A stretch of 64,000 nt of DNA from Myxococcota bacterium. Its GTDB lineage: Bacteria; Myxococcota_A; UBA9160; UBA4427. The position numbers and the translations under genes were made by a program. Shown one piece after another: positions 6,497-55,190 of this stretch. The stretch lies in NCBI GenBank assembly GCA_050618075.1, contig JBNLVL010000026.1, forward strand, positions 58,558 through 122,557. Direction: 5' to 3'. The notes under the pieces are model-generated. The model did not search any database, had not been told where the DNA came from, and worked only from the letters and a program-made list of their open reading frames with translations. Each line of letters begins with the position of its first letter. Within the stretch, counting starts at the first letter, position 1.

Positions 6497-6670
6497 GAGA
6501 TCCCGGGCGAGATCCCGCGCAAGGTCCCGCGCGAGAGCGCGGGCGGAGTGGACGAGTGGGCGGAGTGGACGAGTGGGCGAGTAGGCGGAGTGGACGAGTA
6601 GGCGGAGTGGTCGAGTGGTCGAGTGGACGAGTGGTCGGAGTGGGCAAGAGGGTGAGAGGGCGAGGGGGGA
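6497..6670. repeat. Two abutting tandem-repeat arrays in a divergent intergenic region
   Basis: The first array is 12-nt x4 (GAGATCCCGGGC, GAGATCCCGCGC, AAGGTCCCGCGC, GAGAGCGCGGGC) at 6497-6544. The second is a 17-nt unit GGAGTGGACGAGTGGGC (exact copies at 6545-6561 and 6562-6578) that degenerates into GAGTGGNC octamers up to 6670, 7 nt before GTG 6677. Confidence 0.9.
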
Positions 6671-9724: not shown

Positions 9725-9771
9725 GCCGCTTCGCTGCTCCTGCGCTGCTCGGGGCCCCCTGCTCCCCCGAC
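9725..9771. repeat. Partial copy of the dispersed GCCGCTTCGC-type repeat family
   Basis: GCCGCTTCGCTGCTCCTGCGCTGCTCGGGGCCCCCTGCTCCCCCGAC lies in a convergent intergenic gap. It shares the terminal module and an identical 21-mer (GGGGCCCCCTGCTCCCCCGAC) with 46238-46258. Confidence 0.7.
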
Positions 9772-9874
9772 TCGGGACCGGGCAGCCGGCGGTCGGGCGG
9801 GATGGCGAGGCGGCTCGAACCCCGGTGGCTGGCCGGCCTGGCTCGAGGAGCGCAGCTGCAGCGGAGCGGCGCGC

Positions 9875-12049
9875 TCAGCTCGGGGGTTGGGGAGGTTCGT
9901 TCCAGGAGAGGTCGTGGGAGGCGATGGGGAGGGTGCGGACCCGGTGGCCCGTGGCGCGGGCGATGGCGTTGCACAGGGCCGGGGCCAGGGGCGGCAGGCC
10001 GGGCTCGCCGATGCCACCCCACTTGTCGCCTCCCGAGAGCGCCAGGTGGGTCTCCATCACCGGCGTCTCGGCGAGCGTGAGGACCCGGTACGAGTCGAAG
10101 TTGCCCTCGCGGACGCGACCGTCCTCGAGGGTCATCCGGCCGTAGAGGGCGGCGGTCAGGCCGAAGACGATGGCGCCCTCGATCTGCTCCTCGATGGTGA
10201 GCGGATTCACCGCGTGGCCGCAGTCCAGCGCCGAGACCACCCGCTCGACCCGGAGCCGGCCTTCCCGGGAGACCTGCACCTCGACCACCTGACCGACGAT
10301 GGTCCCCATGGCCTCGTGGACGGCCATGCCCTGGGCCCGGCCCTCGCCGAGGGGCCGGCCCCAGCCCGCGCGCTCGGCCAGCACGTCGAGCACCCGGACG
10401 AAGTCGGGCCGGTGGGCCAGGAGCGAGCGGCGCAGCGCCAGGGGATCGCGCTCCGCGGCCAGGGCGACCTCGTCCAGGAACGACTCGAGGGCGAAGGCGT
10501 TCTGGGAGTGTCCAACCGAGCGCCAGATGCCCACCGGCACCGGGGTGCGGCGCATGCGGTGCTCGAGCCGCTTCGACGGGATGGCGTGGGGCAGCTCCGC
10601 GAGCCCCATGATGGAGGTCTTGTCGAGGCCGTCGACCAGGTGCTTGGGGCTGTCGGCGAAGATGGGGTGGGCGACCGAGCGGCCATGGATGGACGTGGGC
10701 GCACCCGCGTCGTCCAGGGTGGCTCGGAAGCGGAAGGCCGCCGTCGGGCGGTAGAAGCCCTGGCGGGTGTCCTCCTCCCGGCTCCAGACGAGCTGCACCG
10801 GGACGCCCGCCGCCATGGCGACGCGCACGGCGTCGGCCACGGGGCGGTCGTCGCTGCGGCGGCCGAAGGCGCCTCCCACCAGCTGGCCGTGGACGTGGAC
10901 CTCCTCGGGGTCGCGGCCGGTCAGGCGCGCCGCCGTGCGCAGGGCGCTCTCCTGGTTCTGGGTGCCCACCCAGACGTCCACGCGGTCGTCGGCGATGGCG
11001 ACCGTGCAGTTCTGCGGCTCCATGCACGCGTGGGCCAGGTACGGCACCTGGTATTCGGCCTCGACCGCCCGGGCCGGGTCGTCGGGCGCGGCGGGACCTT
11101 CTTCGAGGAACACCTGCCCCGGCTCGTCGAGCGCGGCGCGGAAGGCGTCGTCGATCTGGTCGCTGGAGAGCCGCTCGACGCCTCGGGTGTCCCACTCGAC
11201 GGGCAGGGCGTCGAGGGCGGTGCGCGCCCGCCAGGTCGAGTCGGCCACCACCGCCACCGCGTCGTCCAGGGCGACCACGGCGACGACGCCCGGGCGACCG
11301 CGCACCGCATCGGCGTCGTGGGACGCCAGCCGGCCCCCGAAGACCGGGCAGTGGAGGATGGCCCCGTAGCGCATGCCCGGGATGCGGACGTCGATCGCGT
11401 AGCGGGCGGAGCCGTCCACCTTCGAAGGCACGTCCAGGCGTGGGGTGGGCGTGCCGAGGAGGGTGAAGGCCTCGGGGGCCTTCAGGGTCAGGGGCTCGTC
11501 GCCCAGCTCGACCCGTGCCGCCTCGGCCGCCAGCTCTCCATAGGAGAGGGAGCGCCCGCCTCCGCGCTCGGAGATGCGACCCATGCGGGCTTCGCAGGCG
11601 GAGACCGGCACCTGCCAGCGCGCCGCGGCCGCGCGGCGCAGGCGCTCGCGGGCGTTGGCGCCGGCTTCCTGGAGGTAGTGGCGCGAGTAGCGCACCGCTC
11701 CGCTGCCGCCGGTGTTGAAGCTCCGGTAGGTCCCGCCGTTGCGAATGCTGCGATTCACGTCCGCCACCTCGAACGTGACCCGCTGCCAGTCGCACTCGAG
11801 CTCCTCGGCCACGATCATGGGCAGCGAGGTGAGCACGCCCTGGCCCAGCTCGGAGCGGGCGACCCGGACGGTGATGGTGTCGTCGGGGTCGATGGTGAGC
11901 CAGGCGTTCACCTCCCCCTCGATGGCGAGATCGGGCGCGAAGAGGTCGTCCTCCTTGCGGCCGCAGGCCGGAAGGTGGAAGGCCAGCACGAGTCCGCCGG
12001 TCGCTCCGACCGTGGCCTCGAGGAAGCGGCGCCGGGTGAGGGGGGCCAC
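9875..12049 (-). CDS. Molybdopterin-binding oxidoreductase large subunit (IorB / aldehyde oxidase family), Tat-exported
   Basis: 724-aa ORF with GTG start. Twin-arginine N-terminus TRRRFLEATVGATGG. The body is typical of isoquinoline 1-oxidoreductase beta / xanthine dehydrogenase family subunits. Confidence 0.9.
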   Translation of the reverse strand: MAPLTRRRFLEATVGATGGLVLAFHLPACGRKEDDLFAPDLAIEGEVNAWLTIDPDDTITVRVARSELGQGVLTSLPMIVAEELECDWQRVTFEVADVNRSIRNGGTYRSFNTGGSGAVRYSRHYLQEAGANARERLRRAAAARWQVPVSACEARMGRISERGGGRSLSYGELAAEAARVELGDEPLTLKAPEAFTLLGTPTPRLDVPSKVDGSARYAIDVRIPGMRYGAILHCPVFGGRLASHDADAVRGRPGVVAVVALDDAVAVVADSTWRARTALDALPVEWDTRGVERLSSDQIDDAFRAALDEPGQVFLEEGPAAPDDPARAVEAEYQVPYLAHACMEPQNCTVAIADDRVDVWVGTQNQESALRTAARLTGRDPEEVHVHGQLVGGAFGRRSDDRPVADAVRVAMAAGVPVQLVWSREEDTRQGFYRPTAAFRFRATLDDAGAPTSIHGRSVAHPIFADSPKHLVDGLDKTSIMGLAELPHAIPSKRLEHRMRRTPVPVGIWRSVGHSQNAFALESFLDEVALAAERDPLALRRSLLAHRPDFVRVLDVLAERAGWGRPLGEGRAQGMAVHEAMGTIVGQVVEVQVSREGRLRVERVVSALDCGHAVNPLTIEEQIEGAIVFGLTAALYGRMTLEDGRVREGNFDSYRVLTLAETPVMETHLALSGGDKWGGIGEPGLPPLAPALCNAIARATGHRVRTLPIASHDLSWNEPPQPPS

Positions 12050-13955: not shown

Positions 13956-14273
13956 GTCCCGCGCGTCCCCGAGCTCTCTCCCGGACCTCTCCCGGACGGC
14001 CTCACTTTGGGCGATCCCATTCTGGAAAAGTCCGCGGAATCGGTAGATCATGTGTCACCGGACTCCCGTCTCACGCCACCTACGTGCCGGGATGCTCCGG
14101 CCGAGAGTCCTCGTCGATCACCGACGACCGCGGTCGCCTGCACCGCGGGCTCCGCTCTCGGCGGAAACGAGCTGACCATCCGCAGGGATGTTGCCTTGGT
14201 TGCCCTTGTTGCCCCGGAGGGAAGATTGCGGACCCTGTCTCCTCACTGTGAGCGCGCGCCCGGACGTCGAGCC

Positions 14274-17200
14274 GTGAGCCGACGAGCGCTCCGGAGCGTG
14301 CTGCCGGCCGTGCTGGCGCTGCTCTGTCTCGGGGCCGGCCCGGCCCGGGCCCAGCTCGATCCCCACGTGGGTGGCCAGTGGAGCGGGATCCTGCCCTGGC
14401 CCCACATCGCGGTCTCCATGGCCAGCCTGCCCGACGGCCGCATCCTGACCTTCTCCTCCAACGAGCGGGACAGCTTCCCGGTGGACGTCGAGTTCACCTA
14501 CGCGGCGGTCTGGGACCCGGAGACCGGCGTCCACTCCGAGATTCCGCACCCCTCCCACGACATGTTCTGCGCCTCGCTGGTGACGCTCGAAGACGGCGAA
14601 GTGTTCGTGACCGGCGGCCGCAACAAGGGGCTGAGCCCGTTCACCAGCATCTTCGACTTCCGCACGGACTCCTGGATTCCCATGGAGGACATGAACCGGG
14701 GCCGCTGGTACCCGACCAGCATCGCGCTCCCCAACGGCCAGGTGTTCGTGGCCGTGGGCACGGGCGGTCAGCAGTATCCGGAGATCTGGACGCCCGGGTC
14801 GGGCTGGCAGCTGCTCACGGGAATCGACCTCACCGACCCCATCCTGCAGTACGGCTCGATCAACGGCGGCGATCAGTGGCCGCTGATGCACCTCGACCTC
14901 GACGGCAACATCCTCCACTACGGCGCCACGCCGATCATGCACTCCCTGGACCTCACCGGCCTGGGCAGCATCACGACGATCGGCCCCCACAACGCGCCCT
15001 GGCACGCCAAGGAAGCCGTCGCAGTGATGTACGACGAGGCGAAGCTGCTCGTCGCCGGCGGCGCCACCGCGATGACCGACGTCACGAGCGTGGCCAACGC
15101 GATGACCATCGACATCAGCGGGCCGGCGCCGGTCATCACCCAGATCGCGCCCATGAACTCGCCCCGGCAGTACCACAACGAGGTCATCCTTCCCGACGGC
15201 CGGGTGATCGTGATCGGCGGCAACACCAACGGCGAGAAGTTCGTGGACACCAGCGCGGTCCTCGCCCCCGAGGTCTGGGACCCGGACACCGGCGTCTGGA
15301 CGCTGTGGAACCCCCAGCAGGTGCCGCGGGTGTACCACTCGACGGCCATCCTCATGACCGACGGCCGGATCATCTCGGCGGGCGGCGGTCTCCGGAACCT
15401 CGGCAGCGAGGGCGACCATCTCGACGCCGAGATCTTCTCGCCGCCCTATCTCTTCGACGCACTCGACCAGCCCGCGGTGCGGCCCGTCATCACCGACGCC
15501 CCGGGTCTGCGGCGGATCGGGACGTCGTTCGGGGTCGAGGCCACGGCCGGGCTCTCGCGCTTCACGCTGATCAAGATGTCGGCCACGACCCACACGCAGA
15601 ACACCGACCTCCGGTTCCTGGAGGTGCCGTTCAGCGAGGACGCCCCCGGCGAGTACACCCTCACCCTCCACTCCGACGAGAACGTCCTCACCCCGGGCTA
15701 CTGGATGCTGTGGGCGCTCGACGCCCAGGACGTCCCCAGCGAGGCCCACGTCATCCAGATCGTGACCACCGGCCGGCCTCGGGCGCCGATTCCGGCCGAT
15801 CCGCGCAACCGCGTGGGAGACGTGGTCTCGCTCCAGATCGAGGCGGCGGACCCCGACGGCGATCCCTTGAACTTCGGCGCCAGCGGTCTGCCCGACGGCC
15901 TCGCGATCGATCCGGCCACCGGGCTCGTCACCGGCGTTCCCACCACGCCCGGCATCTTCAACGTCGACGTGCTGGTGGACGACGGCGTCGACTCGGTGGC
16001 GGTCGCCTTCCGCTGGTTCGTGGCGACCCCGCAGGTCCACAGCGAGATCGGCTCGGTCACGGTCGCCCAGGCGGATTCCGACGAGTGGCACGCGGTCTCG
16101 TTCGGCGACATCTTCGTCGACCCCATCGTGGTGATGGGGCCGCCCACGCGCAGCGACTCCGCGCCGGTGACGGTCCGCGTGCGCGACGTCACGCCGACGG
16201 GCTTCGAGTTCCAGATCGACGAGTGGGACTACCTGGACGGCGCCCACGGCTCGGAGACCCTGGCCTGGATGGCCGTCGACGCCGGCGCCCACGTGCTCGA
16301 CACCGGCGAGGCGCTCGTGGCCGGCGTCACCGAGTTCGTCGATCACGACTGGAAGACCCAGGACCTCCCGGCGGGCGCCTTCTCGGTCACGCCCCTGGTG
16401 CTGGCCCAGATCGTGACGTCCGGGCATCCCGAGGCGGCGGTCGACCGGCTCCAGAACGTCGGATCCGGCTCCTTCGAGGTCAAGCTCCAGGAGCAGGAGA
16501 AGGAAGACGGGCTGATCGGCGCGGAGAAGATCCACTGGATCGCCATCGAGCCCGGAGTGGACTCCGGAGGCGTGGTGGCCGACCTCACCGGGCCGGCCGT
16601 CGACCACGATCCCTACACCCTCGACTGGACGCCCGACTTCTCCGGAGCGCCCCAGCTGCTGGCGACCGCCCAGACCTACCTCAGCTACAACCCGATGGCC
16701 ATGCGCATGATGTCGACCAGTGCCGCGAGCACCGACATCTTCTGCGAGGAGGAGACCTCCAAGGACACGGAGCTCGCGCACTCCCAGGAGGACATCGGCT
16801 ACCTGGCTGCGGACCCGACGGTGTCCGGCCTCTCGCTCTCGCCGCTGTTCAACGACCCGCCGACCATCGACGACCCGGGCGACCAGACCAGCGAGCAGGG
16901 CACGGCGATCGCGCCGCTGATGCTGGTGGTGAACGACCTCGACGGCGATCCGGTCACGTTCGGCGCGGCGGGGCTGCCCGACGGCCTCGCCATCGATCCG
17001 CTCACCGGCGTCATCAGCGGTACGCCGACCACGCCGGGCGTCTCGACGGTGACCGTGACCGTGACCGACCAGCCCGGCGCGAGCGCCGACGCCGTGTTCG
17101 ACTGGACCATCAACGAGGAGCTGAGCCTCGCCCAGACCGCGGCGCCGCCCCAGGCGGCCGGCGACTCCGTCTCGCTGTCGGTCGTCCCGAGCTGGCCGGG

Positions 17201-19355
17201 CGCCTTCGAGTACGTGTGGGACTTCGGAGACGGCACGCCGCCCACCGATCCGTCGCCCCTGGCCTCGGCGACCCACACCTACGCCGGTCCCGGACGCTGG
17301 GTGGTGACGGTGACCGTGACCGACCCGTCCTCCGGCGCCAGCGACGTGCTGCAGTTCGAGCAGGTCATCCATCCGGTGGCGGCGGGCACGCCGCCCGCGC
17401 AGTCGAGCTCGATCGTCTACGAGGCCGCGGCGGACCGCGTCTGGACCGTGAACCCCGACAACGACAGCGTGAGCGTCTTCGACGCGACCACCGACCTGAA
17501 GGTCGCCGAGGTTCCGCTGGGTGACGAGCCGTCCAGCCTGGCCATCGCCAGCGACGGCTTCGTCTGGGTGGTCGAGAAGGGGGCGGCCCGCATCAGCCTC
17601 ATCGATCCGGTGGGGCCGACCCTCGCGCGCCACATCGAGCTGCCGCGGGCCTCGAGGCCCGACTCCCTGGTGTTCTCCCACGACGGCCTGCTGGCCTACG
17701 TGTCGCTCGAGGCCACGGGCGAGCTGCTGGAGATCGACGCCCTGGGCGAGGTCGTCCTGGCCTCGGTCGACGTGGGCCCGAACCCCAGGGCCCTGGCCCT
17801 CACGCCCGACGGAGCCACCCTGCTGGTCTCGCGATTCGTGACGCTCCCGCTTCCGGGCGAGTCGACCGACAGCCCTGCGACCGAGGACCTGGGCCAGCCG
17901 GTGGGCGGCGAGGTGATTCCGGTGGACACCGCGACCCTGGTGGCCGATCCGTCGATCGTCCTGGAGCACAGCTACGCCGCGATCACGCAGTCCTCGGGCC
18001 CCGGCGTGCCGAACTACGTGGGTGTGGCCGCCATCGCGCCCGACGGCGCCAGCGCCTGGGTGCCCTCGAAGCAGGACAACATCCTGGGCGGGGCCGCGCG
18101 CAGCGGAATCGATCTCGGCCACGATTCCACGGTCCGGGCCGTGTCGTCCCACGTCGACCTCACCACGCTCACGGAGAGCCTGGTCGACCGGGTCGATCAC
18201 GACGACGCCAGCGTGGCCAACTCGGCGCGCTTCGACGCCACGGGCGCCTACGTCTTCACCACCCTCGAGAGCACCCGCGCGGTGGCCGTCATCGACCCGT
18301 TCGGGAAGGCCGAGCTCGGCCGCTTCGCCGCCGGACGCGCGCCGCGGGGCACCGCGCTCTCGCCCGACGGGCGCACGCTCTACGTCCACAACTTCATGGA
18401 CCGCACGGTCACGGTCCACGACCTGTCCCAGCTGCTCGACTACTCCACGGTGGTCGTGCCCACCGTGGCGACCTGGTCGCTGGTCGCCAGCGAGTCCCTG
18501 GCCGCCGACGTGTTCGCCGGCAAGCAGTTCTTCTACGACGCCTTCGATCCGCGCCTGGCGCTCCAGGGCTACATGTCCTGCGCCTCCTGCCACAACGGCG
18601 GGGGCCACGACGGACGCACCTGGGACTTCACGCAGTTCGGCGAGGGGCTGCGCAACACGATCGACCTGACCGGCCACGGCCAGGGCCACGGTCCGCTGCA
18701 CTGGACGGCCAACTTCGACGAGGTGCAGGACTTCGAGGGGCAGATCCGCATGTTCGCCGGCGGGACCGGACTCATGGCGGACGTGGACTTCTACACCGGC
18801 ACGCGCTCCGATCCGCTGGGCGACCCGAAGGCGGGCATCAGCGCGGACCTGGATGCGCTCGCGGCCTACGTCCAGTCGCTGACCTCGGCCTACGACAGCC
18901 CGTATCGCATGTCCGACGGGTCGCTCACCGCCGAGGCCCAGGAGGGCCGGACGCTCTTCCTCTTCGAAGGCTGCGCCGACTGCCACAGCGGGACGGCCTT
19001 CAGCGACAGCGGGACGCTCGCGATCCACGACGTCGGCACCTTGACGCCGGCCAGCGGCCCCGTGGTCGGGCTCGACACGCCGACCCTGCGCGGACTGTGG
19101 TACGGCGCTCCCTATCTCCACGACGGGTCCGCGGCGACCCTCGAGGAGGCCGTGGCCGCCCACTCCGGCGTGGCCCTCGACGCCTATCAGCTGGGCCTGC
19201 TGGCCGCCTATCTCGAGCAGATCGACGACGACGAGACCCAGGCGCCCAGCGTGGGAGCACCGTCCAAGTGCGGTCTCGGCTCGGAGCTGGCGATCGCGCT
19301 GCCCGGACTGCTGTGGCTCCGCCGCCGCCGCCAACGCGCAAGGGCCCGCGGCTAG
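14274..19355 (+). CDS. 1693-aa secreted multidomain protein: galactose/glyoxal-oxidase-like Kelch + DUF1929-like, cadherin-like repeats, lectin-like repeats, PKD, YVTN beta-propeller, di-haem cytochrome c peroxidase-like domain, C-terminal sorting tag
   Basis: GTG 14274 precedes the signal peptide SRRALRSVLPAVLALLCLGAGPARAQ. RFTLIKMSATTHTQNTDLRFLEV (DUF1929-like). Two DPDGDP..GLPDGLAIDP.TG..G.PTTPG repeats. WDFGDGT (PKD). CASCH (18579-18593) and CADCH (18972-18986). Tail is KCGLGSELAIALPGLLWLRRRRQRARARG. Confidence 0.9.
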   Translation: MSRRALRSVLPAVLALLCLGAGPARAQLDPHVGGQWSGILPWPHIAVSMASLPDGRILTFSSNERDSFPVDVEFTYAAVWDPETGVHSEIPHPSHDMFCASLVTLEDGEVFVTGGRNKGLSPFTSIFDFRTDSWIPMEDMNRGRWYPTSIALPNGQVFVAVGTGGQQYPEIWTPGSGWQLLTGIDLTDPILQYGSINGGDQWPLMHLDLDGNILHYGATPIMHSLDLTGLGSITTIGPHNAPWHAKEAVAVMYDEAKLLVAGGATAMTDVTSVANAMTIDISGPAPVITQIAPMNSPRQYHNEVILPDGRVIVIGGNTNGEKFVDTSAVLAPEVWDPDTGVWTLWNPQQVPRVYHSTAILMTDGRIISAGGGLRNLGSEGDHLDAEIFSPPYLFDALDQPAVRPVITDAPGLRRIGTSFGVEATAGLSRFTLIKMSATTHTQNTDLRFLEVPFSEDAPGEYTLTLHSDENVLTPGYWMLWALDAQDVPSEAHVIQIVTTGRPRAPIPADPRNRVGDVVSLQIEAADPDGDPLNFGASGLPDGLAIDPATGLVTGVPTTPGIFNVDVLVDDGVDSVAVAFRWFVATPQVHSEIGSVTVAQADSDEWHAVSFGDIFVDPIVVMGPPTRSDSAPVTVRVRDVTPTGFEFQIDEWDYLDGAHGSETLAWMAVDAGAHVLDTGEALVAGVTEFVDHDWKTQDLPAGAFSVTPLVLAQIVTSGHPEAAVDRLQNVGSGSFEVKLQEQEKEDGLIGAEKIHWIAIEPGVDSGGVVADLTGPAVDHDPYTLDWTPDFSGAPQLLATAQTYLSYNPMAMRMMSTSAASTDIFCEEETSKDTELAHSQEDIGYLAADPTVSGLSLSPLFNDPPTIDDPGDQTSEQGTAIAPLMLVVNDLDGDPVTFGAAGLPDGLAIDPLTGVISGTPTTPGVSTVTVTVTDQPGASADAVFDWTINEELSLAQTAAPPQAAGDSVSLSVVPSWPGAFEYVWDFGDGTPPTDPSPLASATHTYAGPGRWVVTVTVTDPSSGASDVLQFEQVIHPVAAGTPPAQSSSIVYEAAADRVWTVNPDNDSVSVFDATTDLKVAEVPLGDEPSSLAIASDGFVWVVEKGAARISLIDPVGPTLARHIELPRASRPDSLVFSHDGLLAYVSLEATGELLEIDALGEVVLASVDVGPNPRALALTPDGATLLVSRFVTLPLPGESTDSPATEDLGQPVGGEVIPVDTATLVADPSIVLEHSYAAITQSSGPGVPNYVGVAAIAPDGASAWVPSKQDNILGGAARSGIDLGHDSTVRAVSSHVDLTTLTESLVDRVDHDDASVANSARFDATGAYVFTTLESTRAVAVIDPFGKAELGRFAAGRAPRGTALSPDGRTLYVHNFMDRTVTVHDLSQLLDYSTVVVPTVATWSLVASESLAADVFAGKQFFYDAFDPRLALQGYMSCASCHNGGGHDGRTWDFTQFGEGLRNTIDLTGHGQGHGPLHWTANFDEVQDFEGQIRMFAGGTGLMADVDFYTGTRSDPLGDPKAGISADLDALAAYVQSLTSAYDSPYRMSDGSLTAEAQEGRTLFLFEGCADCHSGTAFSDSGTLAIHDVGTLTPASGPVVGLDTPTLRGLWYGAPYLHDGSAATLEEAVAAHSGVALDAYQLGLLAAYLEQIDDDETQAPSVGAPSKCGLGSELAIALPGLLWLRRRRQRARARG

Positions 19356-31956: not shown

Positions 31957-33318
31957 ATGAACCGATGGCCCGACATCCTGCGCTGCCCCGGCTGTCGGGG
32001 GGCCCTCCGGGACGGGGCCGGCGGCGCCCTGGCGTGCGACTCGTGCGGGGCCAGCCATCCGGTCCACGACGGCATCCCCTGGCTGTTCCGCAACGGCGCG
32101 AGCGCCCGCGCCCAGTGGTCGGCCAAGCTCCAGCACCACGTGGCCAGCGTCGAGCAGGAGATCCGGCAGCTCGCTTCGGCCTCCCAGGGCTCGAGCTGGC
32201 TGCCGGGCACGGCGCAAAGGCTCGAGCGCCTCCGCGCCGGCAAGCGGGCCCAGCTCTCCCGGGTCGTCGAGCTGCTCGCGCCCTTCGGTCTGGACGAGGC
32301 CGCGCCCGAGAGCGGGCTTCCCGAGGATCGCATTCCCAGCGTCCAGCACCTGGGCAGCTATCTCGACACCGCCTTCCGCGACTGGTGCTGGGGGGAGGCG
32401 GAGGTGCGCGACGCCGTGGCGTGGCTCGCCGCCCAGCTGGAGGCGGGGGAGGGCGACCGGGCCGGCCGGCACGCGGTCGTCCTGGGCGGGGGCGCCGGCC
32501 GGCTCACCTGCGAGCTCGCCGCGCTCGGACCCTGGGCGAGCGTCGTTCAGCTCGACGTCAATCCGCTGCTCAGTCGGATCGCCGCGCTCGCCTGCCGGGG
32601 CGAGTCGGTCGAGCTCACCGAGCTGCCCGCGATTCCCCTGGGCCTCGAGCACGTGGCGGTGGAGCAATCGCTGCGCGGGGTCGTCGAGGCGCCCGAGCCC
32701 GCGCCCCGGTTCTGTCTGGGGGACGTCTTCGCGCCGCCGTTCGCCGAGGCGTCCATCGACGTGATCGTGACGCCCTGGTTCATCGACGTCCTGCCCGAGG
32801 GCTTCCGCGCCCTCTCCCGGCGGATCAACCGGCTGCTGAAGCCGGGCGGCACGTGGATCAGCTTCGGCCCCCTGAGCTTCGAGTCGTTGCCCGAGGCGGC
32901 GCGCTATACGCCGGAAGAGGTGTTGGAGGCGCTGGTCGAGGCGGGCATGGGGGTCGAGAGCCACGAGATCCGCCGGGTTCCCTACCTGCATTCGCCCCAC
33001 GCCATGGCCCGCCGCCACGAAGAGATCCTCGGGTTCCGGGCGACCCGCCGGACCGAGGCCGCCGACCCCGGTCCCTTCCGTTACTACCCGGCCTGGATGA
33101 CCGATTCCACGCGTCCGATTCCCGCGCTGCCGATCTGGACCCAGCAGCAGCGCCAGAAGGTCTTCGACGTCCAGATCCTCGGGCTGATCGACGGCCGCCG
33201 CTCCATCGACGATGTGGTGTCACGCCTCGCCACGGAGTTCGAGCTGCCCCCCGACCGCTGCCGCGCCGTGGTCGACCGCTTCTTCTCGTCCATCATCGAA
33301 GAGTCCCGAGGCGGCTAG
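31957..33318 (+). CDS. Trm112-like zinc-ribbon + SAM-dependent methyltransferase + C-terminal PqqD-like (RRE-type) domain protein
   Basis: N-terminus RCPGCRGAL...CDSCGASHPVHDGIPWLF. Central VVLGGGAGRL and LKPGGTWISFGPL. C-terminus ILGLIDGRRSIDDVVSRLATEFELPPDRCRAVVDRFFSSII matches the PqqD pattern by eye. Confidence 0.8.
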   Translation: MNRWPDILRCPGCRGALRDGAGGALACDSCGASHPVHDGIPWLFRNGASARAQWSAKLQHHVASVEQEIRQLASASQGSSWLPGTAQRLERLRAGKRAQLSRVVELLAPFGLDEAAPESGLPEDRIPSVQHLGSYLDTAFRDWCWGEAEVRDAVAWLAAQLEAGEGDRAGRHAVVLGGGAGRLTCELAALGPWASVVQLDVNPLLSRIAALACRGESVELTELPAIPLGLEHVAVEQSLRGVVEAPEPAPRFCLGDVFAPPFAEASIDVIVTPWFIDVLPEGFRALSRRINRLLKPGGTWISFGPLSFESLPEAARYTPEEVLEALVEAGMGVESHEIRRVPYLHSPHAMARRHEEILGFRATRRTEAADPGPFRYYPAWMTDSTRPIPALPIWTQQQRQKVFDVQILGLIDGRRSIDDVVSRLATEFELPPDRCRAVVDRFFSSIIEESRGG

Positions 33319-33361
33319 ACCGTCCCGCGCCGCACGGTCCTCGACCTCCCTCCCCCCCGGA

Positions 33362-34048
33362 GCCGCTTCGCTTCTCCTGAGGTCCTCCGTTGCCCCGACC
33401 GGGGGATGGGTTGCGACTCCGTCTCCCTCCGCTCCTTCTCTGCCGAGGCTGGCGGCCGCGGGGAACACGACGCCTGCGCTCGTCCACACGCGGCCGCCAT
33501 CGGTCGTAGGAGCACTTCGAGTGCGAGCGCAGCGTACACGCCTCGGCGGTCGCTCCGCTGCCAACCCTTCCCCCGGTCTCGCACTGGATGGCCAACGGCC
33601 CTCGCTCGAGCCTCCGAGGACATGCGAACCGGAGTCGTTGGCTGCCCCGTCCCGGGTCGGGGGGGGCAGGGGGGTGCCGGGGGTAGGGGGGGGGCTTCGC
33701 GCTGGGGTTCCCGCCTGCGGAACTGGGCGGGGGCCCCCCCTGCACCCCCCGCCCCGGGCCGGGGCAGCCAACGACTCTGGTTCGAGCTGCCTCGAAGGAT
33801 CGCGCCTGCCGTTGGCTGCCCAGTGCGAGACCGGGGGAAGGGTTGACAGCGGAGCGACCGCCGACGCGAGAAGGGCGCTCTTGCCCTCGAAGCGCTTCTG
33901 CAACGCGTGGCGGCCAGCGTCGGCCTGAGCTGGAGCGTCGTGTTCCGTGCGGCCGCCAGCTGGCGCGCTGGCGTCAGGGGAGGGAGACGGAGTCGCAACC
34001 CTTCCGCCGGTCGGGGCAACGGAGGACCTCATGAGAAGCGGAGCGGAA
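33362..34048. repeat. About 685-bp imperfect palindrome: two inverted ~340-bp copies of a dispersed structured element, with G-run/C-run centre
   Basis: The left arm (33362-~33705) and the reverse complement of the right arm (~33706-34048) share blocks TGAGGTCCTCCGTTGCCCCGACCGG, GGGTTGCGACTCCGTCTCCCTCC, GGCGGCCGC.GGAACACGACGC, TCGGCGGTCGCTCCGCTG.CAACCCTTCCCCCGGTCTCGCACTGG and GAGTCGTTGGCTGCCCCG. Conserved blocks fall in different reading frames in the two copies, so the element is non-coding. Confidence 0.9.
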
Positions 34049-34068
34049 CCGGTTGGAGAAGAGGGGGG

Positions 34069-36447
34069 TCAGAGGCGGAAGCGGACCAGGGTGGCGGGGA
34101 GGAGGACGAGGTCGGTCAGCAGGCAGATCAGCATGGTGAGCGCCGTGAGCGCGCCGAACTCGCGGAGCGTGGCGAACTCCGAGAACACGATGACCCCGAA
34201 GCCCGCGACCAGCATCAGTGAAGTCATCGCGATGGGCCGACCCACGGCGCGCACCGTCGCCAGCGCGGCGGCCTCGGGCGCCGCCCCGGCCTGGCGCTCG
34301 CGCCGGTAGCGCACCATGAAGTGGGCGGTGTCGTCGACGGCGATGCCCAGGGCCACGCTTCCGATCAGGCTCGTGGGCAGGGAGAGCGGAGCGACGCCCA
34401 GGCCGAGCAGCCCGAAGAACACCACCACCGGCACGACGTTGGGCACCATGGCCACCAGCCCCAGGCGCGCCGAGGACAGCCCGAACGCGACCAGCCCGAA
34501 GATGGTGAGCGCGGCGATGCCGATGGTAAGGGGCTGGCCGCTGGCGATGCCGTCGGCGCTGCGCGCCAGCAGGATCGCGTTTCCCGTGAGCGCCGGCCGG
34601 CTCGCGTCCGGCCAGGGCCCCTGGGCGATCGCGGCGCGGATCTCCCGGGTGAGCTGGCGGATCGCCGCCGAGCCGACCTCCCCCGTGCGCACGATGACGT
34701 TGGCCTGGCCGTGGTTCACCGTGGCGAAGCGCTGCAGGTCCGTCTTGGGGATCATGAACAGCAGCTCGGAGACCCCGGAGCGGGTGTCGGGCACCCGCTC
34801 CGCGTCGGGGTCGTCCTCCTCGAAGGCCCGGTTGAGCACGCGGATCGTGTCCACGAACGACAGGGTCCGGCTGACCCCGTCGATCCGGTCGAGCCGCGCC
34901 TGGAGCGCCTCCAGCGCGCGCAGGCGCTCGGGCTCTCGCAGTCCGCCGCGCCCTCCCCCGTCGATGACCACGTACAGCGGGACCGCGCCGGCCAGCAGCC
35001 GGTTCACGGCCTCGAAGTCCGTGCGCACCGGATCCCGGGCGTCGAAGTTCGTGAGGTAGTCGGTGTCGACGACGATGTCGGGGATCGCCGCCGCCGCGAG
35101 CCCCGTGAGCAGCGCGGCCGCCGCCACGATCGCCCCGGAGTGCGCCACGACCCGGCGGGCCAGCCCGTCGAGGGCGGCCTCCAGGGCCCGGTCGAAGCGC
35201 CGTTCGGCCGCGGCCCGCACCGGCAGCAGCGCGAGGGCCGCCGGCACCGCGACCAGGGACAGGACGGTGATCGAAGCGACGCCCAGCGCCGCGAAGGCGC
35301 CCAGCTCGAGCACCGCGGGCACGTCGCTCACCAGCAGCGCCGCGAAGCCGGCCATGGTGGTGAGGCCGGCGATGCACACCGGCGCGCGCAGGTGGCGCAG
35401 CGCGGCCTCGGCGGCATCGGCGGGCGAGCCCGCGCCCGCCGCCGCGTCCTCCTCGTAGCGGGCGAAGACGTGGACGCCGTAGACGCTCCCCATGGCCACG
35501 AGGGTGGGCCCGAGCAGGCCCGTCAGGATCGTGAGCGCGTGCCCCAGGAAGGCCATCGCCGCGAAGGTCCACAGGTTCGCCACCAGGGCCACGCCCAGGG
35601 GCAGCACCACGCCGCGGCGGCGTCCGGTGGCCAGCCCGATCACGAGGGCCGCGACCGCGATGCCCAGGGGAATGAGGGCGCGCAGGTCCGAGACCATCCC
35701 GGCGTAGACCCGCGCCTTGATGTGGGGACGCCCGGAGACGTAGAGGGCCAGGTCCTCGGAGGCCTCGCCGGCGAGGATGCTCGCGATCCGGGAGTCGAGA
35801 CCGCTGGCGATGAACTCGTCGTCCCCCATGTCGCGAAAGCGCACGTTGATGGCCGCGGCCCGACCGTCCTCGGCCACCCAGGTGCGCCGGTAGATGGGGT
35901 CGGCGAGGGCGCGGTCGCGCAGCGCCCGCAGCGCGGCCGGGTCCTCGGGGATCTCCTCGATGAAGGGTCGCACCTCGACCCACTGCTCCTCGGCCACCCA
36001 GCGAAACGAGGTGACGTCGAGCAGGCTCCTCACCGAGCGCACGCCCTCGAGGTGGGCGATCCGATCCGAGACCCGTCCCAGGGTCGAGAGGCAGCGGACC
36101 GTGAAGACGTCCTCGCACTCGAGGGCGATCACGAAGACCTCGTCGTCGCCGAAGGTGCGCACGGCCTGGTCGTAGAAGGCGCGGGCGGGATCTCCGGAGG
36201 GAAGCAGGGGCTCCGTGGAGGCATCGAAGCGCAGGCGCAGGGCGCCCGATGCCGGGTCGAAGAGCGCCGCGGCCGCGAGGGCGACCGTGATCCCCACCGC
36301 GACGGCCACCGACCAGGGGTGCTCCACGACCTGACGCGGCCGGGCCAGGGCCCAGCCCACGGCCCCCGCCCACAGCAGCGCGCACCCGAGCGCGAACGCG
36401 AGCGCCAGCGGGTCGCCCGCCGCGCTCTCCCCCGTGGCTCCCGGCAT
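34069..36447 (-). CDS. MMPL / RND-superfamily exporter (HpnN-like lipid transporter)
   Basis: 792-aa ORF with two 6-TM bundles separated by soluble domains, an architecture typical of MMPL-type exporters. Confidence 0.85.
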   Translation of the reverse strand: MPGATGESAAGDPLALAFALGCALLWAGAVGWALARPRQVVEHPWSVAVAVGITVALAAAALFDPASGALRLRFDASTEPLLPSGDPARAFYDQAVRTFGDDEVFVIALECEDVFTVRCLSTLGRVSDRIAHLEGVRSVRSLLDVTSFRWVAEEQWVEVRPFIEEIPEDPAALRALRDRALADPIYRRTWVAEDGRAAAINVRFRDMGDDEFIASGLDSRIASILAGEASEDLALYVSGRPHIKARVYAGMVSDLRALIPLGIAVAALVIGLATGRRRGVVLPLGVALVANLWTFAAMAFLGHALTILTGLLGPTLVAMGSVYGVHVFARYEEDAAAGAGSPADAAEAALRHLRAPVCIAGLTTMAGFAALLVSDVPAVLELGAFAALGVASITVLSLVAVPAALALLPVRAAAERRFDRALEAALDGLARRVVAHSGAIVAAAALLTGLAAAAIPDIVVDTDYLTNFDARDPVRTDFEAVNRLLAGAVPLYVVIDGGGRGGLREPERLRALEALQARLDRIDGVSRTLSFVDTIRVLNRAFEEDDPDAERVPDTRSGVSELLFMIPKTDLQRFATVNHGQANVIVRTGEVGSAAIRQLTREIRAAIAQGPWPDASRPALTGNAILLARSADGIASGQPLTIGIAALTIFGLVAFGLSSARLGLVAMVPNVVPVVVFFGLLGLGVAPLSLPTSLIGSVALGIAVDDTAHFMVRYRRERQAGAAPEAAALATVRAVGRPIAMTSLMLVAGFGVIVFSEFATLREFGALTALTMLICLLTDLVLLPATLVRFRL

Positions 36448-45948: not shown

Positions 45949-45966
45949 GCCCCACCTCCCGGCGGC

Positions 45967-46291
45967 GGCCGCTTCGCTCCAATCGTGCGGGCCGCTTCGC
46001 ATGCACAGCGCCGCTTCGCTTCACCTGAGCGCCTCCGTTCCCCCGGTCTCGCACTGGGCAGCCAACGGCCGCGACGGTCCTGCGAGGCAGCGCGACCGGG
46101 AGTCGTTGGCAGCCCGGCTTCGCGTCGGGGGAGCAGGGGGTCCCGCGCGCAGATTCCGCAGGCGCCGAGGCCAGCGCGAGGCAGCCCGGTTACCCCGGGA
46201 AGCAACCCCGTCCGTTCGCCGAGGACTGTTTGAGCACGGGGCCCCCTGCTCCCCCGACCCGTCCCGAGCAGCGCATGAGGAGCGAAGCGGC
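45967..46291. repeat. Short (about 325 bp) MITE-like copy of the dispersed repeat family with inverted termini
   Basis: Three direct GCCGCTTCGC motifs (45969, 45991, 46010) on the left and AGCGAAGCGGC (46281-46291) on the right. Internal 14-bp inverted repeat GGGGGAGCAGGGGG / CCCCCTGCTCCCCC. The 30-mer CCCCCGGTCTCGCACTGGGCAGCCAACGGC (46040-46069) is identical to the reverse complement of 33808-33837. Confidence 0.85.
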
Positions 46292-46297
46292 CTGTCT

Positions 46298-46344
46298 GGG
46301 GGGGGGGGGGGGGAGGGAGAGCGGGGGGGGGGAGGGGAGGGGGG
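46298..46344. repeat. Homopolymeric G-run cluster (G16, G3, G10, G4, G6), G-quadruplex-prone
   Basis: G16 at 46298-46313, G10 at 46323-46332, G6 at 46339-46344. The cluster directly abuts the trkA stop codon (46345-46347, minus strand). Confidence 0.9.
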
Positions 46345-53840: not shown

Positions 53841-55190
53841 TCACTCCTCGTCGGAGATGTCTTCGAGCTCCCGGCGCGCCGTCTCGGGAACCATCAACGC
53901 GACCCCGCCCGCGATCAGGGTCAGGAACACGATGACGCTGGCGGCCGGGGCGTAGCTCGCGCCTTCGGCGGTGAGCAGGCTGACCGCCGCCAGGCCGCTG
54001 GCCGCGCCCAGGGTCTCGAAGAGGCTGAGGGACCCCGACGCGGTGCCCCGGGACGACGTGGGGAACAGCTCGGTCGAGAGCGCGCGTACGACGGTGTTGC
54101 CGCCGGTGGTGACGAAGACCATGGGAATCCACACGGCGGGGATCCAGAAGGTCGGGACGTTGTAGAAGGCGCAGGCGAAGACCGGGAACAGTCCGAGGAT
54201 GAGGAACCCCACCACGCGGCGCCCCAGGCGGTCGGCGAAGCGCCCCACGGCGGTGTTGCCGATGATCCCGACCGCGCCCCCGAGGATCACCATGGTGCTG
54301 TACTGCCCCTTGGTGAACCCGTGGTCCGTCAGCACGAAGTCGCCCACCAGCTGGTGCGCCATGCCGTGGCCCGCGGCCGCGAGGGAGCCGATCGAGGCGA
54401 GCGCCAGGGAGCGGCCGGGGTAGCGCTTCGCGAGGGTCGCGAAGGGCCTCCACCAGCCCAGGAGCCACGAGCCCGTGGCCCGCACGTCCCGACTGCGGGT
54501 GAACCGGTGGGTCTCCGGAACCCGGCGGTGGAACATCGGGAGCAGGAAGAGCGGTATGGCGCCGAACACGTAGAGAGCGCGCCAGCCGTAGGGCAGGTGG
54601 TCGGACAGGGGAAAGACGAGGGCGCCGAGGCCGAAGCCCACGGCGCCGAGCGCCCCGAGGATGCCCACCGCCCAGCCGCGGTGCCGGGCCGGGAACTCCT
54701 CGGCCACGATCACGAACGCCACGGCGGATCCGGCGATGAGAAAGGTGCGCGCCAGCATCTGGATGGCCACGAACTGCGCGGCGGACTGGCTGAAGGCCGT
54801 CAGCAGCGTCGCCAGGCTGGTCCCGGCGACGGACACGAGGAACAGCCGGCGTCGCCCGATGCGGTCCGCGAAGGGGACCAGGAGGACCGCCGGCAGCGCT
54901 CCCAGTCGGACCAGGGCGGTGAGCCCACCCAGGTCGGACTGGGGGATGTCGAAGGAGGCCCGGATGTCCCGGGCGGCGGCGGTCAACATCGAGATGTCGT
55001 AGTGCTCGAAGAGCAGGGCCAGGGCGATGACACCCAGCAGGCCGAGCTGGGCGGGCGTGACCTCGGGCGGCACCCGACCCAGGAAGGGCGGAATCCACCA
55101 GGGCTGACGCGCGGGAAGCGGCTCCGAACGCGGGTCGGCCCGGCCGGAAGCGGCGTCTTTCGAAGACGAATCTCGAGGCGGCTCGCTCAC
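53841..55190 (-). CDS. MFS transporter
   Basis: 449-aa ORF with 12 TM-like segments and MFS signature-like DRIGRRR / DRLGRR loops. Confidence 0.9.
   Translation of the reverse strand: MSEPPRDSSSKDAASGRADPRSEPLPARQPWWIPPFLGRVPPEVTPAQLGLLGVIALALLFEHYDISMLTAAARDIRASFDIPQSDLGGLTALVRLGALPAVLLVPFADRIGRRRLFLVSVAGTSLATLLTAFSQSAAQFVAIQMLARTFLIAGSAVAFVIVAEEFPARHRGWAVGILGALGAVGFGLGALVFPLSDHLPYGWRALYVFGAIPLFLLPMFHRRVPETHRFTRSRDVRATGSWLLGWWRPFATLAKRYPGRSLALASIGSLAAAGHGMAHQLVGDFVLTDHGFTKGQYSTMVILGGAVGIIGNTAVGRFADRLGRRVVGFLILGLFPVFACAFYNVPTFWIPAVWIPMVFVTTGGNTVVRALSTELFPTSSRGTASGSLSLFETLGAASGLAAVSLLTAEGASYAPAASVIVFLTLIAGGVALMVPETARRELEDISDEE

Follow-up and report, generated by a model that had tools for sequence, protein, structure and literature searches.

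In the 64-kb window, the whole stretch of DNA that was analyzed, a methyltransferase fusion gene on the plus strand and an MMPL gene on the minus strand converge, and the gap between them is occupied by a large imperfect palindrome. The features of this locus, in order along the DNA, are as follows.

31957 to 33318, plus strand: gene for a Trm112-like/SAM-methyltransferase (CARME-like)/PqqD-like fusion protein, identical (100%) to a protein (P0001) assigned to a Myxococcota bacterium MAG; its stop codon lies 38 nt before the palindrome
33346 to 33356, plus strand: outer polypyrimidine tract CCTCCCTCCCC, read from the sequence; outermost pairs of the predicted fold
33357 to 34052: the complete imperfect palindrome; no other family member in the window is as long
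33357 to 33700, plus strand: left arm, long form (arm alignments)
33362 to 33379, plus strand: terminal motif T at the left end, GCCGCTTCGCTTCTCCTG (motif search and nhmmer T profile)
33397 to 33578, plus strand: stem-loop of ~182 nt inside the left arm; its stem is GACCGGGGGATGGGTTG / CAACCCTTCCCCCGGTC (94% complementary)
33565 to 33678, plus strand: H1-G hairpin module of the left arm (module search and fold comparison)
33679 to 33730: central spacer, asymmetric and G-rich, with its own small hairpin GTTCCCGCCTGCGGAAC (sequence and alignments)
33710 to 34052, minus strand: right arm, long form, with the modules in the same order as in the left arm (arm alignments)
33731 to 33843, minus strand: H1-G hairpin module of the right arm, with its inner stem within 33767 to 33816 and its G-rich module at 33731 to 33753
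34030 to 34047, minus strand: terminal motif T at the right end, inverted, TCCGCTCCGCTTCTCATG (motif search and nhmmer T profile)
34069 to 36447, minus strand: gene for an MMPL/RND-type transporter; its stop codon lies 16 nt from the palindrome

Structure of the palindrome

Inverted-repeat analysis placed the palindrome at 33357 to 34052 (~700 bp, 696 nt), with its center near 33704, and no other local inverted repeat of the window comes close to it in strength. The earlier note had described an imperfect palindrome of ~685 bp at 33362 to 34048, made of two inverted halves of ~340 nt; the palindrome and its halves are there, but these bounds were slightly narrow. The reported inverted-repeat arms measured 77 nt (91%), 108 nt (81%), 71 nt (83%), and 26 nt (92%). 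In alignment, the two arms are 78% identical (257/328 columns) and differ by indels of 1, 1, and 2 nt. Just outside them, the polypyrimidine tract at 33346 to 33356 pairs imperfectly with a purine tract at 34053 to 34068, and on both sides of the palindrome the outer tract, read in the direction of the adjacent gene, is rich in C.

The left arm consists of T, block A/B, block C, block D, the hairpin module H1, and the G-rich module, in that order. The stem-loop at 33397 to 33578 has a mirror copy at 33829 to 34012. Within the left H1-G module, CCCTTCCCCCGGTCTCG pairs with the G-rich module at 33656 to 33678, and the inner stem is formed by GCCAACG (33591 to 33597) with CGTTGGC (33636 to 33642). 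This internal hairpin, which had been noticed before, is present in both arms and again in a third copy at 46061 to 46110, so that the pattern GCCAACG-N(25-45)-CGTTGGC occurs three times with 0 expected. The string CAGTTCCGCAGGCG (minus strand) of the central spacer is likewise common to the copy at 46 kb. Separately, we observed that CCCTTCCCCCGGTC can pair with an upstream or with a downstream partner and that the two pairings are mutually exclusive.

The mismatches between the arms are clustered, as judged from 10,000 shuffles (P = 0.0008 for the bases in runs of ≥20 and P < 0.0001 for the number of runs), and the conserved blocks quoted in the earlier note each have exactly two occurrences, one in either arm, where chance predicts 0. 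The described alternation of blocks and spacers is therefore borne out as clustering, but the blocks are not perfect over 20 to 45 nt: those without a mismatch are 12 to 26 nt long, and the 45-nt block has one mismatch. Nor do the spacers all merit the term unrelated. By sequence comparison, at least some are diverged homologous sequence, and in the hairpin loop the right arm is closer to the 46-kb copy than to the left arm. The mosaic conservation of the arms is real, and, in line with the earlier note, the palindrome is not a recent duplication.

The whole gap is predicted to form a single hairpin of ~340 bp (dG of −617.8 kcal/mol versus −407 ± 10 for shuffled sequence; z = −21.9), which agrees with the long hairpin of >300 bp proposed previously. 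For the isolated arms, the predicted folds are only slightly better than those of shuffled sequence (z = −2.3 and −1.3). The palindrome is noncoding. A protein-coding reading was ruled out by the 1-, 1-, and 2-nt indels, which shift the frame between conserved blocks and had already been taken to mean that selection is not on a protein, and by the GC3 periodicity of the flanking genes (0.9+/0.4), which is lost between about 33320 and 34070.

A family of related elements at convergent junctions

BLASTN, repeat, and profile searches located at least four related palindromic elements, including that at 33357 to 34052, in ~70 kb of one MAG (the 64-kb window and a further 5.8 kb). The copy count suggested in the earlier note thus yielded three more elements in or beside the window, all of them at convergent junctions.

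9725 to 9870: short related palindromic element of ~146 nt that has T at one end, inverted T at the other, and a minus-strand G-rich module at 9751 to 9771
45950 to 46344: related element with its core at 46010 to 46291, between a convergent SH3-domain gene and trkA
L007:9784-9993: fourth related element, just beyond the window end

Two genes converge on the short element, one for a PQQ dehydrogenase, whose stop is at 9705, and one for a molybdopterin oxidoreductase, whose stop is at 9875. The core of the 46-kb element is made of T, a short-form H1 plus G (46010 to 46148), a loop of ~90 nt, an inverted G (46238 to 46258), and an inverted T (46274 to 46291). Two extra direct T motifs lie outside this core, at 45968 and 45991, making T a triple direct repeat at 45968 to 46027, and a poly-G tract occupies 46298 to 46344.

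The modules common to the family are the terminal motif GCCGCTTCGCT..C.CCTG in inverted orientation, the H1 hairpin, and the G-rich GTCGGGGGAGCAGGGGG; the shared hairpin module of ~110 nt reads CCCCCGGTCTCGCACTGG...GCCAACG/CGTTGGC. The T motif is inverted at both ends of three elements, and the T profile recovered all six ends with nhmmer E-values of 7e-9 to 2e-6. The H1-G profile recovered four copies (E-values of 5e-29 to 3e-23). Terminal modules come in two subtypes, and a single element combines both. The 10-mer GCCGCTTCGC occurs eight times in the window with 0.82 expected, six of these occurrences being in three elements, and GTCGGGGGAGCAGGGGGNCCC occurs three times with 0.10 expected. 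Since every member is itself palindromic with inverted terminal motifs, the natural unit is the whole palindrome and not the 340-nt element that the halves had suggested.

The H1-G modules of the two arms are 81% identical to each other and 77% and 73% identical to the copy 12 kb away. Each arm is thus barely more similar to the other arm than to the 46-kb copy, which argues against a one-off local inverted duplication. The family comes in size variants of about 146, 282, and 696 nt, and comparison of their sequences showed that they differ by whole hairpin modules gained or lost. In the 46-kb element, the short arm equals the long arm minus a stem-loop segment, almost exactly 33392 to 33567. 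The endpoints of this missing segment share TTnCCCCG, as would be expected for hairpin-mediated slippage.

In gene maps of the window and the adjoining contig stretch, family elements lie at 4 of 12 convergent junctions, and the tandem and divergent junctions, about 37 in number, have none (P of about 0.002 by the hypergeometric test). Every convergent gap of >100 nt without a tRNA carries an element, the elements occupy their gaps from stop codon to stop codon, and the flanking genes are unrelated between loci.

Searches beyond this genomic region returned no relatives. With Rfam, two tRNAs and nothing else passed the gathering thresholds in the whole window, and at an E-value of ≤10 the best match in 33200 to 34200, a chance similarity to a microRNA model, reached 26.9 bits where the threshold is 71. 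Exact-pattern scans of genome contigs for block D and for the G module gave 0 matches. Among metagenome contigs, block A had 0 matches and the H1 pattern had one (L003), which we rejected as chance because it lies within lower-G+C coding sequence without a partner arm. Scans of viral contigs gave 0 matches, plus one in another scan (L009) that was also set aside as chance, being in a collagen-like repeat gene, and plasmid BLASTN gave no match. The nearest relatives of the methyltransferase (54 to 65% amino acid identity) have different downstream neighbors, with no synteny and no long gap; the family motifs were not found at these homologue loci, and no long local palindromes were present in the contig of one relative (L006). 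Our literature search found no described repeat for Myxococcota that is comparable to this family. Fujitani, Komano, and Inouye reportedly described a repetitive sequence in Myxococcus xanthus in 1991.

Based on these results, we consider the palindrome to be, probably, the longest member seen of a lineage-specific family of modular, nested-hairpin intergenic repeats that resembles REP, BIME, and ERIC sequences and that likely serves as a bidirectional hairpin in 3′ untranslated regions (3′ UTRs).

Relation to known repeats and mode of spread

Enterobacteria, pseudomonads, neisseriae, and streptococci are well known to carry interspersed palindromic repeats, and this family is a new example of a familiar phenomenon that alters no major concept. 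What sets it apart is a ~700-bp member, far above the typical unit length of a REP, ERIC, or MITE sequence, and the combination of nested hairpin modules with a location, in the sequence examined, at convergent-gene junctions only.

The REP/BIME sequences of Escherichia coli, Pseudomonas, and Stenotrophomonas are the closest parallel. Both groups are extragenic, G+C rich, and hairpin forming, both are mosaics of modules in alternating orientation without a target-site duplication, and for both a role in 3′ UTRs as a bidirectional terminator or a block to RNA decay has been proposed. The copies found here are extragenic mosaics of inverted modules at convergent junctions (four loci in about 70 kb), and the strong bias to convergent gaps is shared. 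In E. coli, convergent gaps house about 60% of REPs, a REP is found at about 30% of convergent junctions (compared with 4 of 12 here), and REPs work as bidirectional terminators or decay blocks (bioRxiv 10.64898/2026.03.23.713779). However, the REP unit is about 35 to 40 nt long (about 20 to 40 nt in the general definition) with a conserved 5′ GTAG, whereas the elements described here span 146 to 696 nt, contain nested hairpins, and have no GTAG-type head, their conserved ends reading GCCGCTTCGCT... instead. REPs are also linked to a RAYT (TnpA-REP) transposase, and none was present among the window genes scanned. The sequences of the two groups are not similar, and the host here is an uncultured Myxococcota lineage.

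The ERIC/IRU, Correia, RUP, BOX, and SPRITE repeats are similar in being imperfect palindromes in transcribed intergenic regions at 3′ ends; repeats of the ERIC/IRU type form long RNA hairpins that affect mRNA stability, and BOX is modular. According to Wilson and Sharp in 2006, ERIC length variants reportedly arose from internal insertions or deletions. Co-transcription at 3′ ends, long hairpins, and a bias to convergent genes have been described for other intergenic repeats as well (PMC3184786). Repeats of the ERIC/IRU type differ in their length of about 100 to 160 bp (MITEs reach about 400 bp), compared to 696 bp for our palindrome, and in having target-site duplications such as TA, which were not found here; the ends here fall into two subtypes.

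These features raise the question of whether the family is a nonautonomous MITE or foldback transposon that is mobilized in trans through its GCCGCTTCGCT... terminal inverted repeats. Such an origin would account for the size variants as internal-deletion derivatives and for the convergent gaps as the least harmful insertion sites; it overlaps with our preferred reading on what the elements are and differs in how they spread and in implying no host function. The terminal T motifs, inverted and conserved at all six ends of three elements, are what a MITE would carry, and the element is predicted to fold as a whole into a long hairpin, a shape characteristic of MITEs (PMC3184786). Other fitting features are the length variants, whose ends are shared, the unrelated flanking genes at the different loci, and the breaking of the short-read assembly at elements. 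However, at the three elements we found no direct repeat at the inverted-repeat boundaries, and hence no target-site duplication, even when the ends were allowed to vary by ±8 nt, and no transposase or RAYT was found among the window genes scanned. A search for both kinds of evidence had been proposed in the earlier note. At 696 nt, the palindrome is also longer than MITEs usually are (<200 to about 400 bp; PMC3184786), two terminal-module subtypes are mixed within one element, and extra direct T motifs lie outside the 46-kb element. We therefore regard a MITE origin as possible but doubtful. For the REP/ERIC-like family that we favor, spread by a trans-acting transposase and spread by recombination between copies are both possible.

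Possible roles at 3′ ends and the remaining explanations

By analogy with these repeats, the element is probably co-transcribed into both 3′ UTRs, where it would terminate transcription or block RNA decay. In this proposal, both convergent genes would be transcribed into the element, and each 3′ UTR would consequently start with the same arm in the sense orientation. The arm in the 3′ UTR would fold into highly stable GC-rich hairpins that may act as a bidirectional, U-tract-free terminator, as a barrier to 3′-to-5′ exonucleases, or as both, and that could hold the two convergent transcription units apart. The mosaic conservation would then arise because the conserved blocks are family-wide stems and terminal motifs, with loops and linkers left to drift.

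A bidirectional intrinsic terminator is similar in that one palindrome between convergent stop codons offers a stable hairpin to either transcript. The canonical form, however, is a stem of 5 to 20 bp followed by a U-tract, whereas the structure here is a branched stem of ~340 bp, and no T-run (U-tract) follows the hairpins of the palindrome. Since this T-run is missing, a role in termination is proposed by analogy. A consensus scan of 33000 to 34400 found no promoter-like or terminator-like site. Efficient termination without a U-tract has been reported in high-G+C bacteria, namely, mycobacteria and Streptomyces. If the convergent bias holds genome-wide, the family would offer a natural case for how high-G+C bacteria without U-tract terminators end convergent transcripts and for how a palindrome with ~340-bp arms is tolerated.

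A more far-reaching version of this role is that the elements are host-adopted, genome-wide 3′-end modules of 150 to 700 nt with nested hairpins that mark convergent junctions, where they may act as bidirectional, U-tract-free terminators or insulators, give rise to double-stranded or processed RNAs, and have their terminal motif bound by a dedicated protein. We consider this version speculative and rather unlikely.

Another explanation is a dedicated structured RNA, with each arm specifying a 3′-UTR-derived small RNA or a cis-regulatory RNA and the blocks being selected for structure or protein binding; the earlier note had similarly favored a functional RNA or an array of protein-binding sites. 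The block-wise conservation, with its significantly clustered mismatches, fits such an RNA, as do the mutually exclusive pairings of CCCTTCCCCCGGTC. The H1-G hairpin is kept in four copies, with 91.9% of cells paired versus 36 to 57% in slid controls, and contains several G-U pairs. The covariation check that had been proposed, in contrast, gave no significant signal, the four H1-G copies not rising above shuffle controls. Folding energies were also inconsistent: the sense strand folds better in three of four H1-G modules, but the asymmetry is opposite in the fourth copy. Nothing in Rfam matched beyond chance even at an E-value of ≤10, no homologue was found outside the host genome in the genome and metagenome scans, no promoter-like site was found, and the module content varies freely among copies, unlike in a conserved RNA gene. 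Because the genes beside the copies are functionally unrelated and the Rfam, genome, and metagenome scans found no homologue outside the lineage, a REP/ERIC-like repeat is more likely than a specific structured regulatory RNA, and we think such an RNA improbable.

A one-off local inverted duplication or assembly chimera of no wider significance is very improbable: the lack of a match to the palindrome interior in an independent short-read assembly would be in keeping with it, but artifactual palindromes are near perfect, whereas these arms are 78% identical with indels, show scarcely more similarity to one another than to the 46-kb copy, and are accompanied by related elements at three other loci. 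The independent assembly was that of the same sample in Logan (SRR30568139). Its contigs match the outer ends of the palindrome at 100% identity, one reaching 33391 (L001) and the other starting at 34011 (L002), and both end 35 to 45 nt into the arms; a look-up of an interior open reading frame for an independent contig across the interior gave no match. With 22% divergence between the arms and both outer ends reproduced, an assembly artifact was rejected.

The family elements disrupt short-read assemblies of the host organism. Short-read contigs break inside elements at four of nine breakpoints, while elements make up about 2% of the window, and contig breaks also occur at sites without elements, which makes them a poor proxy for copy number. 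An identical 32-mer, longer than the k of the assembler, is present in both the right arm and the 46-kb copy. Gene callers may also misannotate family elements as open reading frames.

The palindrome and its flanking genes

A repeat search placed the strongest local inverted repeat of the window, an imperfect palindrome, at 33357-34052, slightly wider than the 33362-34048 reported in an earlier note made from the sequence alone. Pfam identified the genes on either side, which are convergent.

Features of the main palindrome locus
31957-33318, + strand: Trm112-like/methyltransferase/PqqD-like fusion, left neighbor
33357-33700, + strand: left arm
33710-34052, - strand: right arm
34069-36447, - strand: MMPL transporter, right neighbor

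The inverted arm pairs measured 77 nt (91%), 108 nt (81%), 71 nt (83%), and 26 nt (92%), all centered near 33704. In a MAFFT alignment, the left arm matched the reverse-complemented right arm over the full ~340 nt, with 78% identity (328 aligned columns) and indels of 1, 1, and 2 nt. These indels confirm the claim that conserved blocks change reading frame between the copies, and coding periodicity, marked in the flanking genes by codon-position G+C of ~0.93/0.4, is absent from ~33320 to ~34070; together, these results rule out a protein-coding reading. A separate short-read assembly from this sample (Logan SRR30568139) recovered both outer ends at 100% identity (contig L001 to 33391, contig L002 from 34011), and a technical chimera is excluded because the arms are 22% divergent. 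The main palindrome is noncoding and is no artifact.

Conservation between the arms is mosaic. The identical runs are 26, 25, 23, 18, 18, 12, and 12 nt long, shorter than the perfect 20- to 45-nt blocks originally described, and the 45-nt block carries one mismatch. The clustering of mismatches is nevertheless significant, with 74 bases in runs of ≥20 nt versus 10.7 ± 14.7 in shuffled alignments (P = 0.0008) and fewer runs than in every one of 10,000 shuffles. The blocks quoted in the earlier note occur exactly once per arm, where chance predicts none, and the arm-conserved blocks largely coincide with family-wide stems and the terminal motif. Some of the spacers, called unrelated in the earlier note, are simply diverged homologous sequence when an arm is compared with the copy at 46 kb. 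The observation itself was upheld, and the interpretation given in the earlier note was partly supported.

NCBI lists a protein with 100% identity to the methyltransferase, encoded on a contig of 323,950 bp and labeled "MAG: Myxococcota bacterium." The architecture of the methyltransferase is unusual, joining a Trm112-like zinc ribbon to a CARME-like SAM methyltransferase, with a PqqD-like (RiPP-recognition) domain at the C terminus. It has >100 mostly unnamed homologs in metagenomes and may be a peptide-modifying methyltransferase.

Dispersed copies, modules, and folding

The whole-window repeat search also returned a shorter relative at ~46010-46148 and a fragment at ~9725-9787, each of which proved palindromic itself by sequence reading and sensitive BLASTN. 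A more degenerate fourth copy lies directly past the window end, on short-read contig L007. The copy count that the earlier note had proposed, done by BLASTN and profile search, thus gave three further elements in the window and the L007 tail.

Elements and the genes that they separate
9725-9870: 9-kb element, convergent junction of PQQ-dehydrogenase and molybdopterin oxidoreductase
33357-34052: main palindrome, convergent junction of methyltransferase and MMPL
46010-46291 (core): 46-kb element, convergent junction of SH3-domain protein and TrkA
L007:9784-9993: fourth element, convergent junction of metallo-beta-lactamase-fold protein and rhomboid

Modules of the elements
T, terminal motif: GCCGCTTCGCTnCnCCTG, at both element ends in inverted orientation
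H1, hairpin module: CCCCCGGTCTCGCACTGG-nnn-GCCAACG-(35-38 nt)-CGTTGGC, 3 copies versus 0 expected
G, G-rich module: GTCGGGGGAGCAGGGGGnCCC, 3 exact copies versus 0.10 expected

The H1 count bears out the internal GCCAACG/CGTTGGC hairpin proposed earlier. G-module variants GTCGGGGGGGGCAGGGGGG and GGCGGGGGGTGCAGGGGGGG are located in the main palindrome. The 10-mer GCCGCTTCGC was counted 8 times in the window (0.82 expected), 6 of these within the window's three elements. In the window and L007 tail, nhmmer profiles matched the combined hairpin module H1-G four times (E = 5e-29 to 3e-23) and a T end six times (E = 7e-9 to 2e-6), with no additional matches to either profile. The T ends form two subtypes, one continuing as ...TGAGG/CG.CCTCCGTT and the other as ...TGCGCTGCTCGGG, and the 46-kb element has one of each. 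Its short arm equals the long arm minus 33392-33567, a segment nearly coextensive with an internal stem-loop (stem GACCGGGGGATGGGTTG / CAACCCTTCCCCCGGTC), and TTnCCCCG is common to both deletion endpoints; this pattern is consistent with slippage adding or removing an entire hairpin.

Over 108 columns, H1-G identity was 81% between the two arms, 77% between the right arm and the 46-kb copy, and 73% between the left arm and the 46-kb copy, and these groupings were supported by 15, 11, and 6 sites, respectively. Judged by this module, the arms of the main palindrome are therefore about as diverged as dispersed copies.

The whole gap folds as one hairpin (dG -617.8 kcal/mol versus -407 ± 10 for shuffled sequences, z = -21.9); single arms, folded alone, are only a little more stable than their shuffles (z = -2.3 and -1.3). 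RNAalifold of the four H1-G copies gave a ~110-nt hairpin, with the G module paired to the C-rich 5' stretch (CCCTTCCCCCGGTCTCG) and CGTTGGC to GCCAACG. Standard pairs fill 91.9% of cells on this structure versus 36-57% when partners are shifted by 1-3 columns. Covariation among these four sequences did not exceed that of shuffled controls, 92 of 500 of which scored at least as high, and both-side changes were limited to two pairs. Folding favors the sense over the antisense strand in three of four modules and the reverse in the fourth. The hairpin modules are retained across copies. CCCTTCCCCCGGTC has two mutually exclusive partners, upstream GACCGGGGGATGGGTTG or the downstream G module; we read these alternative pairings as incidental to the C-rich and G-rich composition of the modules rather than as evidence of an RNA switch.

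Three direct GCCGCTTCGC copies (45968, 45991, and 46010; spacing 23 and 19 nt) occupy 45968-46027, just upstream of the 46-kb element, and resemble an iteron array or putative protein-binding sites. The center of the fourth element (L007:9936-9959) is a small near-perfect hairpin of two T-like motifs (GCGCGAAGCGG-CA-CCGCTTCGGGC), and a T-like motif stands in unexpected direct orientation beside the rhomboid stop codon.

Convergent junctions and a probable role

We mapped genes in the window and L007 tail from GC3-scored ORFs, Logan gene calls, and Pfam, giving ~49 junctions, 12 of them convergent. Every one of the four elements is at a convergent junction, and none is at a tandem or divergent one (hypergeometric P ~0.002). 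Since the remaining convergent genes overlap or are separated by ≤35 nt, with one exception holding a tRNA-Asn, the elements occupy practically every long convergent gap, filling each from stop codon to stop codon. The neighboring genes are functionally unrelated from locus to locus. The element is thus multicopy, modular, palindromic, and noncoding and, among the junctions mapped, confined to convergent ones.

Transcription of both convergent genes would run into the element; each 3' UTR would therefore begin with the same arm in sense orientation and form very stable hairpins. We infer by analogy that, approached from either side, these would halt RNA polymerase, 3'-to-5' exonucleases, or both. 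A terminator scan found no T-run after the hairpins of the main palindrome, which counts against a canonical terminator. On balance, the best explanation, and a probable one, is a lineage-specific family of palindromic repeats at convergent junctions; each would probably act as a hairpin that serves the 3' ends of both neighboring genes in either direction.

They would in this respect work like REP/BIME or ERIC-type repeats. In Escherichia coli, ~60% of REPs lie between convergent genes, ~30% of convergent junctions (207/704) carry a REP, and convergent pairs with a REP show higher expression, in line with a role in terminating transcription from both directions or in blocking decay (bioRxiv 10.64898/2026.03.23.713779). 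The elements described here lack the 20- to 40-nt unit with a GTAG head that defines REPs; the target-site duplication that defines MITEs, which the earlier note had suggested looking for, was not found at any of three elements; and at up to 696 bp they are much longer than either. We therefore class them as interspersed palindromic intergenic repeats outside any named family. No transposase turned up among the window genes scanned.

Rfam gave no relevant match, exact-pattern scans of 185,579 representative genomes, JGI metagenomes, and IMG/VR gave zero or chance matches, and PLSDB plasmids gave none. The loci of the nearest methyltransferase homologs (≤65% identity) are nonsyntenic downstream, with neither family motifs nor a long palindrome. 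These searches place the family, as far as can be seen, in this lineage only, a pattern usual among REP-like repeats. No equivalent from Myxococcota came up in the literature searched; a repetitive element was reportedly described in Myxococcus xanthus in 1991.

Logan short-read contigs from the same sample break at nine places in the window (~100, 9758-9784, 33391, 34011, 36604, 41952, 46067, 47739, and 54874-54903), four of them inside elements, and the right arm and 46-kb copy have a 32-mer in common. These hint only weakly at further copies, because breaks also occur elsewhere. Outside the elements, one break falls in tRNA-Pro and the rest in ordinary genes, where they may reflect strain variation in the metagenome.

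Other tracts and repeats

A 47-nt, almost pure G/purine tract (GGGGGGGGGGGGGGGAGGGAGAGCGGGGGGGGGGAGGGGAGGGGGG; 46298-46344) that separates the 46-kb element from the trkA stop codon could form G-quadruplexes. Read in the trkA sense, the tract is C-rich and directly follows the stop codon; similar, shorter tracts follow the methyltransferase, MMPL, and SH3-domain stop codons, and these C-rich tracts might be Rho-loading sites. ARAGORN called a tRNA-Pro(GGG) at 17103-17184 (- strand) within a 1782-aa Kelch/PKD/Ig-domain ORF (14007-19355); the call is absent from Rfam results at gathering threshold and is probably a false positive. The same ORF contains a 135-nt direct repeat (15849-15983 and 16935-17069; 73% identical, 1086 nt apart) that probably reflects repeated Ig/PKD-type domains. 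A tandem array of 8- and 17-nt units (GGCGGAGT/GGACGAGT...) at 6525-6658 lies within the 425-nt divergent gap between glycosyltransferase and epimerase genes.
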